Below, one piece after another: positions 55,357 to 58,280 of a stretch of 64,000 nucleotides of DNA; the first letter of the stretch is position 1, and every line of letters starts with the position of its first letter. Source of the DNA: Escherichia coli (GTDB lineage: Bacteria; Pseudomonadota; Gammaproteobacteria; Enterobacterales; Enterobacteriaceae); NCBI RefSeq assembly GCF_050920415.1, contig NZ_CP169309.1. One strand, 5' to 3'. The position numbers and the translations under genes were made by a program. The notes beneath the pieces were generated by a model that worked only from the letters and a program-made list of their open reading frames with translations, searched no databases and was not told the origin of the DNA.

Positions 55357-55588
55357 ACTGACTCCCGAAGAGTGTTGGCGAAATTTATTCGCACTTATCG
55401 TTATGATCTACAAAGGCCACCAGCATAACAAATCCGTGGTCGGTGGCAAAAAAAGCAGATTTCGCTTATTAAAACTGCATATTGATTGAAGTTTGAATAA
55501 ACGCGCGATTTTTTAAAAAAGTTTGTTGACCTCAGGTCATGATTTCCCTAAATTAGCGCCCGTTCCAGCAAGACAGGAACGACAATTT

Positions 55589-55676
55589 GGTGAGGTGTCC
55601 GAGTGGCTGAAGGAGCACGCCTGGAAAGTGTGTATACGGCAACGTATCGGGGGTTCGAATCCCCCCCTCACCGCCA
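55589..55676 (+). tRNA. serX: tRNA-Ser (anticodon GGA)
   Basis: 88-nt cloverleaf: acceptor stem GGTGAGG/CCTCACC, long variable arm, T-loop GGTTCGAATCC, anticodon loop CTGGAAA, 3' GCCA. Confidence 0.93.
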
Positions 55677-56323
55677 TCTTTAAAGAAGAGCTCGTACGAA
55701 AGTACGGGCTTTTTTTTCGTATATTGCACACGCCGGGGGGATGAGAAGCCCCGACAGGGGTTCGACAACTGGCGACAGCCAGTTGGACAGACCGTGAACG
55801 CAGTGAGCGGGCTGCCCGCAGGGCGAGCGAAGCGAGTCAATCCCCCCCTCACCGCCATCTTTAAAGAAGAGCTCGTACGAAAGTACGGGCTTTTTTTTCG
55901 TATATTGCACACGCCGGGGGGATGAGAAGCCCCGACAGGGGTTCGACAACTGGCGACAGCCAGTTGGACAGACCGTGAACGCAGTGAGCGGGCTGCCCGC
56001 AGGGCGAGCGAAGCGAGTCAATCCCCCCCTCACCGCCATCTTTAAAGAAGAGCTCGTACGAAAGTACGGGCTTTTTTTTCGTATATTGCACACACCGGGG
56101 GGATGAGAAGCCCCGACAGGGGTTCGACAACTGGCGACAGCCAGTTGGACAGACCGTGAACGCAGTGAGCGGGCTGCCCGCAGGGCGAGCGAAGCGAGTC
56201 AATCCCCCCCTCACCGCCATCTTTAAAGAAGAGCTCGTACGAAGGTACGGGTTTTTTTTTTCGTATATTGCACACACCGGGGGATGAAAAGCCCCGACCG
56301 GGGTTCGACAACTGGCGACAAAC
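55658..56323 (+). repeat. Tandem array, about 3.6 copies of a 181-bp unit, starting inside the serX 3' end
   Basis: Units start at 55658, 55839, 56020 and 56201, each beginning with aatccccccctcaccgcca (the last 19 nt of serX) followed by a terminator hairpin and T-run; copies 1-2 identical, copy 3 has one substitution, the last partial copy is more diverged. Confidence 0.9.
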
Positions 56324-57690
56324 TCAATCATCATCCTTGCAGTTGATAAGAATTTCTGCCTCTTTTACAACTATCTTATTACGTCCGGTTTCTTTCGCTT
56401 CATATAGTGCATTATCAGCCATTCGATAGATCTCATTCGGATTTAACGCACTTCCCTGAGTCACCACAGCGCCAATGCTAATCGTCACTTTTTGCGGTAT
56501 GGCGTATTCAGGATTATCGCCTGTCAAACGCTCTACATTTGCCCTTATCCTTTCGGCTAAAACTTTCGCGCTTTCAGTATCGGTCTCCGTCAGCAAGACG
56601 CCAAACTCTTCGCCGCCAACGCGTGCTAAAAGGTCATTTGGTCGTATGCTTTTCCCAATGATGCTCACCACTGTTTTTATCACCTGATCGCCAACCGGAT
56701 GCCCCCACGTATCGTTAACTTTTTTAAAGTGATCGATATCCATAATCATGACACAATAAGACGTTTTTTGGGCTGATGCTGATTGAGCCTTCAGTTCATT
56801 GAAAAAATAATTCCTGTTAAATATATTAGTTAATGGATCGCGATGGGCAATGTTCTTTGTTACTCGTAGCGCACTGAAAATATGGCACATAAATATTACC
56901 ATAACGGTTAATTTACTGACTACTTCAATAGTGCGGCTAATATACCAAGTGGACACACTATACCTGCTCATAAATAACAGAGAGATATTATACAGCACGG
57001 CACAGAAAGCAATCACTGATACTCCATTCCAGATATCACAGCGTAAACCATTAAAGTATAGATTAACCAAAAGCAAGATTAACCACATGAAAATCATTAT
57101 GGTAACATATGAGGTTTTCCAGACTACCTGACCATTTTCATTTGTTAACTCGGCAATATGTAAACTGTAGTCATCATAATGACTACTTAGCATGTGAGCA
57201 ACTGCCGCCCCCCCAAAAATAAAAAACAGGCTTATACACAATGTCATTTTTTTGGAAAAAAACAGCGTTTCTTATTGTTTTCACTAACTTTATTCACCAG
57301 CGCTAGCAATATTAACATGCACAAACTCATCTGACGAAACAAATAATAAATTGCAATATCATTTTGTACAACGCTGCTTATCAAATGCCCCTCAATAAAT
57401 TGCTGAATGATAATGACAGTTTTAACAAAGTAAATCAAACAACTCAGAAACGCTAAACTAAGTATACAGTTTGAAAATTGCACACGATCATAAATGAAAT
57501 ACAATTGCATGAAAATAAATGCAACGGTATCGATAAAAAATAAAGCAATCATAACCATTAGATAGGTTGATCGTGGAACAACCTCCTCAACGGTTGGCTG
57601 ATTAAACCAACTATTTACCAAAACGAATGCAAGCCCAAACAATAAGCTCACCAATACAGTACTACTAATTCCCAAATAGTCTTTTTCCAT
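56324..57690 (-). pseudogene. dgcT: Diguanylate cyclase DgcT (YcdT), reading frame interrupted; encoded as two ORFs (N-terminal membrane part 57244..57690 or ..57780, and C-terminal membrane + GGDEF part 56324..57247)
   Basis: The N-terminal ORF stops at 57244-57246 and overlaps the ATG of the C-terminal ORF (ATGA); the junction sits in T7-CC-A7 on the coding strand; C-terminal ORF carries GGEEF; one T added to the T7 run fuses the frames. Confidence 0.6.
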
Positions 57691-58046
57691 AAAGCTACAC
57701 CAATCTGTAGGTTGTAGATCCCTTTCTGTCACTAATAGATATAAGAACTGTACTGTTGTCAATATAAAAATCCACCACAAACAATACCAATGATGATAGT
57801 TGCAGACCGCAATTATTATTACCTTAGTGCTTTATACATTCTTCGCGACAAGACAGGCTTGCAAATACATATAAATGGTTATAAGGAAATCCTTATAAAA
57901 CATTAATTCATAGATATATTAGGAATAACAATTGAATCCGTGAGTACAGTAACGCTGCATTTCATCAGGACTTTCGAAAAATCCGATATCATGCATCGGA
58001 ATTTACTGATTTAATTATTTTAATCCTAATTTATTTTGAAAAAGGC

Positions 58047-58280
58047 ATTGGGATTTATGCCGTATTCCTGAAGTTCCTCATCATTGGAATGGATTTTCGG
58101 GCGAGAAAAGGATTTTATATGGATACTCTACTCATCATTTCTTCTTCTCATCATCAACAATTCACGTCTCTCTTCCGCGTTTAATAACGGATTATGATGT
58201 GCAAAAAAAAATATCTTTCGTTTCAGTTACCTGTAATTAGATACAGAGAGAGATTTTGGCAATACATGGAGTAATACAGG
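58047..58280 (+). promoter_or_regulatory. pgaA 5' leader with multiple CsrA-binding GGA motifs
   Basis: Established knowledge: pgaA has a roughly 234-nt leader bound by CsrA at six sites; the sequence shows GGA motifs across this interval, the last overlapping the Shine-Dalgarno (acaggatg). Confidence 0.65.

Follow-up and report, generated by a model that had tools for sequence, protein, structure and literature searches.

An unoccupied, probably ancestral serX locus with an RtT-like repeat array in Escherichia cryptic clade I

In the 64,000-nucleotide stretch of DNA analysed here (the window), serX is followed by a 181-bp repeat array and dgcT, and this interval, seen here in a strain of cryptic clade I, very probably represents the unoccupied and presumably ancestral Escherichia arrangement of the locus, with the K-12 arrangement descending from an OI-47 type and the array being an RtT repeat whose presence is independent of occupancy. 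The ancestral Escherichia order would read ghrA, serX, RtT repeats, dgcT and pgaABCD. Clade I is a sister lineage of E. coli sensu stricto and includes Stx- and enterotoxin-producing strains. The extra DNA found at this locus elsewhere is of two separate kinds, and the window has neither. An earlier note on this DNA had drawn attention to the empty site; the observation is correct but ordinary, the empty layout being common and no new kind of element being involved.

Anatomy and lineage of the interval

The interval is bounded exactly by the end of ghrA and the start of pgaA. On the left, the conserved ghrA (54418–55356, minus strand) is a 312-aa ORF that is annotated as ghrA by PGAP in near-identical genomes and is collinear with K-12 ghrA. 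On the right, pgaA (58281–60704, plus strand), the first gene of pgaABCD, is an 807-aa ORF likewise annotated by PGAP in near-identical genomes. A consensus scan returned a promoter-like site 5′ of serX (TTGACC-17-TAAATT, 55526–55554, plus strand, 9 of 12 matches), which might function as a promoter. The serX gene itself (55589–55676, plus strand) is an intact tRNA-Ser(GGA) gene, the only tRNA found by ARAGORN in the whole window, with an Rfam tRNA score of 53.8 bits and a sequence identical to that of K-12 serX. It runs into the array of 3.66 copies of the 181-bp unit (55658–56320, plus strand), the end of which is separated by only three bases from the stop codon of dgcT (56324–56326, minus strand). 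Beyond dgcT (56324–57690, minus strand) lies the AT-rich intergenic region between the divergent dgcT and pgaA genes (57691–58280, GC 0.34–0.40), which is collinear with K-12. The ORFs inside the array gave no Pfam match, and PGAP annotation of near-identical genomes places no genes in the interval beyond the tRNA and the GGDEF gene. The claim of the earlier note that no IS element, integrase or cargo gene lies between serX and dgcT is borne out, as only the repeat array is present there and the remainder is collinear with the K-12 core.

These features are those of an empty attB site. The tRNA gene is intact and its 3′ att core uninterrupted (ARAGORN, Rfam); integrase, transposase and cargo are absent between serX and the conserved flank; and occupied alleles bounded by the tRNA 3′ core repeat exist elsewhere. 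We read serX of the window as an unoccupied island integration site that may be competent for integration.

In a core segment of 24 kb, about 18 complete genomes reach 98.5–100% identity to the window, and all others at most 97.6%. Among these 18 are EC42405 and 2013C-4282, which have been published as cryptic clade I genomes (PMC10100065), and strain MFDS1022581 is 100% identical over the 24 kb. Members of clade I are expected to share more than about 98.3% identity with clade I genomes and about 96–97% with E. coli sensu stricto (PMC10100065). The identities obtained for the window, which are based on 24–64 kb and not on whole-genome ANI, agree with these values and assign it to cryptic clade I; with 97.1% identity to K-12, they also uphold the earlier proposal of a non-K-12 lineage. 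The marker gene by which clade I is typed in PCR lies outside the window. The main value of the analysis is one of bookkeeping, in that the source of the window is fixed as a cryptic clade I strain. Locus state, number of RtT units and dgcT allele, taken together, offer a usable lineage marker.

K-12 and the occupied versions of the locus

Positions 1–56281 of the window align as one block to K-12 1,153,245–1,096,961 (97.1% identity, all gaps shorter than 8 bp), and positions 56367–64000 align to K-12 1,094,200–1,086,570. Since the two blocks cover the window except for 85 bp, everything in it is K-12 core sequence. The only break of collinearity found by blastn in 64 kb is formed by these 85 bp (56282–56366), which face 2,760 bp in K-12; the assignment draws on the blastn breakpoints, the junction sequences, O157 annotation and a mapping of K-12 onto O157. 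The 85 bp consist of the end of the last partial repeat and the final 43 bp of dgcT, which encode about 13 residues and the stop, whereas the 2,760 bp of K-12 comprise an altered dgcT tail, IS3D, ymdE′ and ycdU. The earlier note had placed IS3, ymdE and ycdU at this position of K-12, and had named a shared structure in K-12 as the outcome that would overturn it. It was right: the order in NC_000913.3 is dgcT, IS3D (insE4/insF4), ymdE (a pseudogene), ycdU, 735 bp, serX and ghrA, and the alignment shows K-12 to be built differently here. K-12 MG1655 shares the flanks and also has an RtT array beside serX (3.44 copies), but differs in a stub of OI-47 truncated by IS3D and in another DgcT C-terminus.

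The origin of this stub is suggested by O157. The K-12 sequence to the right of IS3D maps to positions 12938–11406 of the O157 locus L008 and that to the left to 44825–44679, with 31,740 bp missing, which agrees in size with the published OI-47 (31,727 bp). No target-site duplication was found around K-12 IS3D. From this mapping, the extra K-12 DNA between dgcT and the array is a stub of OI-47 and not an island integrated at serX. K-12 probably represents the derived state at this locus, and we infer that the direction of change was insertion rather than loss. It would descend from an OI-47-type ancestor in which an IS3D-mediated deletion may have removed 31.7 kb, leaving ymdE′ and ycdU. Taking K-12 as the baseline leads to the ymdE/ycdU stub and OI-47 being misread.

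The first of the two kinds of extra DNA consists of P4-type integrase islands (SpLE1/OI-48-like, PAI-serX, SRL) that recombine into the 15-nt core at the 3′ end of serX. This core, TCCCCCTCACCGCCA, is the att repeat of the islands; it adjoins a tyrosine integrase in AST216, in O157 E32511 and at the outgroup locus L040, and RtT sequence then follows. In AST216 and L040 the integrase island sits inside an otherwise empty-type locus. An integrase thus lies at the serX core of AST216, O157 and L040, and none lies in the window. That serX hosts large islands elsewhere, as the earlier note had said, is confirmed by the integrase islands of AST216 and O157 and by published islands, which include PAI-CFT073-serX (113 kb), PAI-UTI89-serX (62 kb), OI-48 and the SRL PAI, for which 14-bp repeats were described at serX. 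The second kind is an integrase-less, OI-47-like block of about 33 kb, which takes the place of the 85 bp linking the last RtT unit to the dgcT 3′ end and gives DgcT a different C-terminal tail. The block lies distal to the array and carries ycdU, a fatty-acid/polyketide cluster, a two-partner secretion pair, fimbriae and an EAL protein. O157:H7 has both (OI-47 and the SpLE1-like OI-48), in the order integrase island, 15-nt core, partial RtT unit, ycdU to EAL protein, and dgcT. It shares the flanking genes and the serX att core with the window, but, unlike the window, has dgcT separated from the partial RtT unit by about 33 kb of OI-47 genes and has an integrase island in serX. Integrase islands at the serX core and the integrase-less block distal to the repeats are easily confused, and are now separated.

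The RtT-like array

TRF found a single array at 55658–56320 (period 181, 3.7 copies, 98% matches), with units at 55658–55838, 55839–56019 and 56020–56200 and a partial unit at 56201–56320. Each unit opens with the last 19 nt of serX (at 55658, 55839, 56020 and 56201), continues with a hairpin and T-run that copy the serX terminator, and ends in a structured core of about 115 nt. Rfam RtT (RF00391) matches at 55721–55857, 55902–56038 and 56083–56219 are significant (41.4–41.7 bits, E = 1e-5), though these three full-length matches stay below the gathering score of 45 bits. The RtT RNA, or tyrT 178-bp repeat (RF00391; rttR in K-12), is built in the same way, with tandem units of 178–181 nt lying directly 3′ of a tRNA gene and each opening with the last 19 nt of its tRNA. 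The closing helix and the core motif GGATGAGAAGC..CGAC..GGTTCGAC ... CCCG.AGGGCGA are common to both, as seen in the alignment with tyrT rtT, the cmscan alignment and the MFE fold. The fold of the unit (z = -4.9) contains the terminator hairpin and the closing helix GGGGGGAU/AAUCCCCCC. The window units differ from those of tyrT in lying 3′ of serX rather than tyrT/tyrV; accordingly, it is the 3′ end of serX and its copied terminator that they contain. PGAP labels the same serX units 'RtT sRNA' in other genomes. Judged by sequence and predicted fold, the array belongs to the RtT family of post-tRNA repeats, and it may be transcribed and processed as part of the tRNA operon transcript. The terminator-like hairpin in every unit would limit read-through. 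The terminator copies on the plus strand were left uncalled by the terminator scan and became visible on folding.

Close relatives within clade I carry anything from 0.66 to 5.66 units, and MFDS1022581, which otherwise matches the window, has 4.66, one more than the 3.66 of the window. The array is independent of occupancy, and its copy number shifts quickly, presumably by unequal crossing-over. The earlier note had instead brought up an att-site remnant tied to the empty state; on that view, islands that entered and left serX would have produced the array. The first 19 nt of every unit do repeat the 3′ end of serX and contain the 15-nt island att core, and a duplicated tRNA 3′ end is a common mark of integrated elements. 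However, the ~115-nt core has homologues in the tyrT rtT repeats, which follow another tRNA that ends differently, and the array is found whatever the occupancy, both in the outgroup and in K-12, which is not empty. The 98% identity of the units and their variable number point to recent unequal crossing-over and not to serial old integrations, and loci that do bear an island have a 15-nt repeat and no enlarged array. An att core accompanied by island-derived sequence and tied to past occupancy is not what the array presents, and we consider the remnant explanation very unlikely.

Every unit combines a copy of the att core with a hairpin that could terminate in both directions, so the units may act functionally. 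They might serve as extra or decoy sites for serX-specific integrases and as a terminator of the convergent dgcT, or the A8 tract of the intact clade I dgcT allele, by which it differs from the alleles of E. coli sensu stricto, might be a slippage switch, in which case a -1 slip would yield DgcT as two ATGA-overlapping ORFs. We regard these functional readings as a long shot. If true, the rapid variation of RtT copy number in clade I (0.66–5.66 units) could tune island acquisition.

Age of the empty layout and the dgcT allele

The empty layout, with ghrA–serX and the 3′ half of dgcT within about 1.3 kb, is present in 1,141 of 5,426 complete E. coli genomes, a figure produced by rules for joining BLAST matches into places and not by curated typing of each genome; among the 5,426, the firm figures are the counts of 80% or more in one place, and the rows listed give no exact partition into classes. 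ST131 (known as a phylogroup B2 lineage), APEC O1, Nissle 1917 and the clade I genomes EC42405, 2013C-4282 and MFDS1022581 share with the window the gene order ghrA, serX, repeat, dgcT and pgaA, the junction of array and dgcT and the type of DgcT tail. ST131 and KN13-4 differ in having 0.6 of a repeat unit, compared with 3.66 in the window, and a dgcT that is not its frameshifted allele. The junction, GGCGACA followed directly by AACTCAATCATCATCC, occurs with close variants in ST131, KN13-4, 14 complete clade I genomes and the outgroup loci L012 and L040.

The outgroup sample comprises a single species, represented by the two loci L012 and L040, and shows 89.6% identity to the window in its core genes. 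L012 (strain SCPM-O-B-8794, labelled E. coli in its record), about 10% diverged in core genes, has the order pgaDCBA, dgcT, repeats, serX and ghrA; its array meets dgcT at the same junction, and its DgcT tail is homologous. The C-terminal ends of DgcT are KEAEILINCKDDD in clade I, KEAEILINRKDDE in ST131 and TEAENLMNWKDDD in the outgroup, and the tail RDVVNFCESP was seen only in K-12 and O157 among those compared. The junction and tail being common to a species diverged by about 10%, the layout is old and probably ancestral. Of the 'ancestral, empty' site proposed in the earlier note, the second word holds outright and the first as a probability. A search of the contigs with the clade I DgcT protein returned L012 as the sole full-length Escherichia relative; 26 other loci encode unrelated GGDEF proteins, which were picked up because a divergent allele had supplied the exact peptide patterns. 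Of three more DgcT relatives traced to contigs, L040 was informative. The other two do not help with polarity: L041 (63% identity, a CadC-like neighbour, no tRNA) belongs to a more distant organism, and L042, from E. coli, is rearranged and contains IS3 and GmrSD.

The same layout would also arise if an ancestral OI-47-like block, or another island, had been deleted once and the junction then spread by recombination. IS deletions are indeed frequent here, as illustrated by K-12 IS3D, by an IS1 deletion from ycdU′ to pgaC′ in H9Ecoli and by an IS3-only variant. The window pgaA is 99–99.5% identical to that of E. coli strain KN13-4, and such recombination between lineages could have carried the junction with it. 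Against this stands a junction with neither IS element nor scar, which retains a homologous DgcT tail in clade I, ST131 and the outgroup species, whereas the last ~10 residues of the OI-47-type tail show no relation to it. The junction has moreover diverged in step with its flanks (3–6 substitutions between lineages), as expected of old vertical inheritance and not of recent spread, and a derived empty state is in our view improbable. That the locus only looks empty, with a serX island or IS collapsed or dropped in assembly, is exceedingly unlikely. Tandem 181-bp repeats are hard to assemble, and the array is one unit shorter than in MFDS1022581, but the 1,141 complete genomes, 14 of them clade I, have the same contiguous layout and the array passes without a break into the unique sequence to its left and right, which limits the uncertainty to the repeat copy number. 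An unoccupied and probably ancestral interval remains the preferred reading.

The dgcT gene of the window, a clade I allele of a MASE4 and GGDEF diguanylate cyclase, is a frameshifted pseudogene, a feature missed in the earlier note. Pfam places MASE4 and GGDEF on two fragments, an upstream ORF of 148 aa (57244–57690) and a downstream ORF of 307 aa (56324–57247) that overlap as ATGA; a -1 frameshift thus splits the domains, and the gene is predicted to be inactivated. Pairwise alignment with the intact 456-aa copy in 2020CK-00188 places the frameshift in a homopolymer at 57256–57262 (read on the plus strand), which is A7 in the window and A8 in that intact clade I allele; the alleles of E. coli sensu stricto have an interrupted run. 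PGAP notes dgcT as 'frameshifted' in MFDS1022581 and N96. The gene is about 90–91% identical between ST131 or KN13-4 and the window. A foreign recombination patch (90% compared with 97% in the flanks) was considered and dropped: the allele is the clade I allele, found in 16 genomes, and dgcT evolves faster in general (81% compared with 89.6% in the outgroup). The dgcT and pga genes have a low GC content (0.34–0.49) and a second, IS-flanked copy exists elsewhere, so that the 'empty' site may adjoin an old acquisition.

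Content and lineage of the ghrA–pgaA interval

The locus (55357-58280) is precisely the gap between ghrA (54418-55356, minus strand) on its left border and pgaA (58281-60704, plus strand) on its right. It holds a single tRNA gene, serX, for tRNA-Ser(GGA) (55589-55676, plus strand), a 181-bp tandem array (3.66 units, 98% matches; 55658-56320), and, on the minus strand, the diguanylate cyclase gene dgcT, with its start codon at 57690 and its stop codon (56324-56326) three bases past the array end. No further gene was found in 55357-58280, the ORFs that span the repeats gave zero Pfam matches, and in near-identical genomes PGAP lists only the tRNA and the GGDEF gene at this locus. 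The description of serX in the earlier note as unoccupied, with only the 181-bp array between it and dgcT, therefore holds. All components at the locus are already described or annotated.

Over positions 20000-44000, the window is 100.0% identical to MFDS1022581, 98.5-99.1% identical to ~17 other complete genomes and at most 97.6% (mostly 97.1%) identical to the remaining ~5,400, including K-12 and SMS-3-5. Both EC42405 and 2013C-4282, which are complete Escherichia cryptic clade I genomes (PMC10100065), belong to the close set; reported ANI values for this clade are >98.3% within it and >95.9% to E. coli sensu stricto (PMC10100065). Only 16 genomes, largely overlapping the close set, carry a dgcT allele at least 99% identical to that of the window; the latter shows ~95% identity to second, IS-flanked copies and ~90-91% to all other alleles. 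Judged by these sequence identities and the distribution of the allele, the source of the window is a cryptic clade I strain. This sharpens the proposed non-K-12 lineage and brings a sister lineage into the evidence on polarity.

In MG1655 the order is dgcT, IS3D (insE4/insF4), the pseudogene ymdE, ycdU, 735 unannotated bp, serX and ghrA, and the IS3, ymdE and ycdU named for K-12 in the earlier note match this annotation. Positions 1-56281 of the window form one aligned block with K-12 1,153,245-1,096,961 (97.1% identity, all gaps <8 bp), and K-12 1,094,200-1,086,570 aligns to 56367-64000. The sole structural difference across the 64 kb is thus a stretch of 85 bp (56282-56366) versus 2,760 bp in K-12. 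Since the window is otherwise collinear with K-12, there is no room in it for an integrase or transposase gene.

Two layers of variation at the locus

Two independent kinds of variation affect this locus, and the window carries neither. The first consists of islands that carry an integrase and occupy the 3' core of serX. An island end, ...GATTTATTTCAGGCGG|TCCCCCTCACCGCCA, beside a P4-type integrase is common to E. coli AST216, O157 and the metagenomic outgroup contig L040; in AST216 and L040 the island lies within an otherwise empty-type locus. Islands at serX in the literature include PAI-CFT073-serX (113 kb), PAI-UTI89-serX (62 kb), OI-48 and the SRL PAI, which is bounded by 14-bp repeats.

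The second layer comprises the OI-47-type block together with forms of it truncated by IS elements, K-12 among them. In O157:H7 E32511, serX is followed by an island whose distal end carries a tyrosine integrase; then come 15 nt that repeat the serX 3' core, an incomplete repeat unit, ycdU and the other block genes, and finally dgcT. The block contains ycdU, an intact ACP S-malonyltransferase gene, a fatty-acid/polyketide cluster, a two-partner secretion pair, a fimbrial operon, regulators and an EAL protein. The junction between array and ycdU (CACACCGGG|TGCCCCCGCCC) is identical in K-12 and O157, and ymdE corresponds to the 3' 344 bp of the malonyltransferase gene. When K-12 was mapped onto O157, 31,740 bp proved to be replaced by IS3D, with no target-site duplication at the element; this length agrees with the published size of OI-47 (31,727 bp, z1528-z1556; PMC8565820), and by this mapping K-12 is an OI-47 carrier truncated by IS3. 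The OI-47 block, which lacks an integrase and sits distal to the repeats, is not a serX-integrated island. The same is true of its stub, which the earlier note had blurred with islands of the integrated type.

An IS3-only form, with a ghrA-pgaA span of ~3.7 kb in many genomes (hits H216-H230, e.g. PSJ-29 and BE2-5), would have arisen from the K-12-like state by a further deletion. These genomes have an annotated IS3 separating serX from a dgcT of K-12 type, and ycdU would hardly fit, judged by the span. In H9Ecoli, an IS1 bridges the truncated genes ycdU and pgaC, and ymdE, dgcT, pgaA and pgaB are gone. Across 5,426 complete genomes dgcT is detectable in 4,166 and undetectable in 1,260, H9Ecoli being the one example inspected.

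Frequency and age of the empty junction

A synthetic query, in which ghrA-serX (54900-55700) was joined to the last repeat and the 3' half of dgcT (56200-57000), was at least 80% covered at one place in 1,141 of the 5,426 complete E. coli genomes (21%), including APEC O1, ST131 strains and Nissle-type strains. A search with the original interval gave 1,537 genomes at 80%, a count that also takes in serX-island cases such as AST216. The empty state is ordinary in E. coli.

In ST131 and KN13-4, serX is followed by 0.6 unit and then by ...GACAACTAGCGACAGACTCATTCATCATCC, which includes the dgcT stop; the junction of the window (...GACAACTGGCGACAAACTCAATCATCATCC) is the same apart from a few substitutions. 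The one outgroup recovered, L012, is a GTDB species representative recorded as E. coli SCPM-O-B-8794 (its contig, NZ_JAATUR010000045.1, is labelled 'Escherichia coli strain SCPM-O-B-8794'). In its ghrA-csg region it shows 89.6% identity to the window and likewise to K-12, and at this level of core-gene identity it is probably another Escherichia species. The order in L012 is pgaDCBA, dgcT, 392 bp of repeats, serX and ghrA, and its junction reads ...GACAACTGGCGACAGAATTAATCATCATCC. The C-terminal tails of DgcT from clade I (KEAEILINCKDDD), ST131 (KEAEILINRKDDE) and the outgroup (TEAENLMNWKDDD) agree, while the tail RDVVNFCESP occurs, among those compared, in K-12 and O157 only. On the simplest reading, drawn from one outgroup species and a region with visible recombination, the empty junction is very probably older than E. 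coli, and the OI-47-type block would have arrived later, in place of 85 bp that took in the final 43 bp of dgcT (~13 residues). The suggestion that the empty site is ancestral is therefore supported as probable by an outgroup that shares its layout, junction and tail type.

Both dgcT (GC 0.34-0.42) and pga (0.41-0.51) are compositionally atypical, and some genomes have a second dgcT-pgaABCD copy elsewhere, amid transposase fragments; 'empty' therefore means without recent insertion, not pristine. The relocated module was seen in NCTC10444 (NZ_LR134092.1, 4.61 Mb; locus L010), O78 strain 3, F11 and PEC41. Its dgcT, a second copy in several genomes, shares the tail type of the clade I allele and is ~95% identical to it.

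The repeat array and the dgcT frameshift

Each unit of the array has three parts: the final 19 nt of serX; a hairpin with T8 that copies the serX terminator and is rendered symmetrical by an A-rich 5' arm; and a ~115-nt structured core closed by a GGGGGGAU/AAUCCCCCC helix (fold energy -80.7 kcal/mol, z = -4.9). Three units gave full-length Rfam RtT (RF00391) hits of 41.4-41.7 bits (E = 1e-5), narrowly missing the gathering score of 45, and several genomes carry the PGAP label 'RtT sRNA' on serX units. The serX units can also be aligned to the 178-bp rtT units that follow tyrV in K-12; these share this design but have the tRNA-Tyr 3' end in place of that of serX.

The earlier note had read the array as an att-site remnant. 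The 735 unannotated bp of K-12 are, however, the same 181-bp array at 3.44 copies, and since it is present in this occupied locus it is not tied to emptiness. The earlier interpretation thus stands for a non-K-12, empty and probably ancestral site and fails for the repeats, although the repeated serX 3' cores are possible candidates for secondary attachment sites. Copy number, compared between the window and loci L002, L009 and L043, differs among clade I genomes (0.66, 1.66, 2.66, 3.66, 4.66 or 5.66), very close relatives included. The window and 2020CK-00188 have 3.66 units, MFDS1022581, otherwise 100% identical to the window, has 4.66, N96 has 5.66, and others range over 0.66-2.66. Such a series fits unequal crossing-over. 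In the L012 array (reverse-complement 6577-6690) one unit is short, its RtT motif CCGGGGTTCGA running directly into the tRNA-type ATCCCCCCCTCACCGCCA, as if DNA had been deleted between two T-arm-like GGTTCGA motifs, that of the RtT core and that of the tRNA 3' copy.

In the window, dgcT is a pseudogene. Its A-tract is A7 (57256-57262) versus A8 in the intact 456-aa copy of 2020CK-00188, and the resulting -1 frameshift (57244-57262, minus strand) splits it into ORFs of 148 and 307 aa. The frame from the ATG at 57690 ends after 148 codons, and the second ORF begins at 57247, overlapping the stop as ATGA; by Pfam, the first holds the N-terminal half of MASE4 and the second the rest of MASE4 and GGDEF. 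The tract is interrupted in alleles of E. coli sensu stricto. A homopolymer sequencing error behind A7 retains a small probability; yet the dgcT sequence of MFDS1022581 is identical and flagged 'frameshifted' by PGAP, and N96 (99.1% identical in core sequence) has the same tract one base short, with the same flag. The frameshift is probably real and common to a sub-lineage. A second length-variable homopolymer, a C-tract (57205-57216), is 3 bp shorter than in 2020CK-00188, in frame, giving FGGAAV instead of YGGGAAV.

The dgcT region (56324-57700), which is AT-rich, has diverged far more than its surroundings: it is ~90% identical to K-12, with flanks at 97%; to L012, dgcT is 81% identical, with flanks at 89.6%. 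The dgcT-pgaA intergenic region and 5' pgaA (57716-59700) are 98.5-100% identical to E. coli KN13-4 and AST216, to which the neighbouring dgcT is ~90% and the ghrA side ~98% identical. This segment looks like a recombination tract that clade I shares with a lineage of E. coli sensu stricto.
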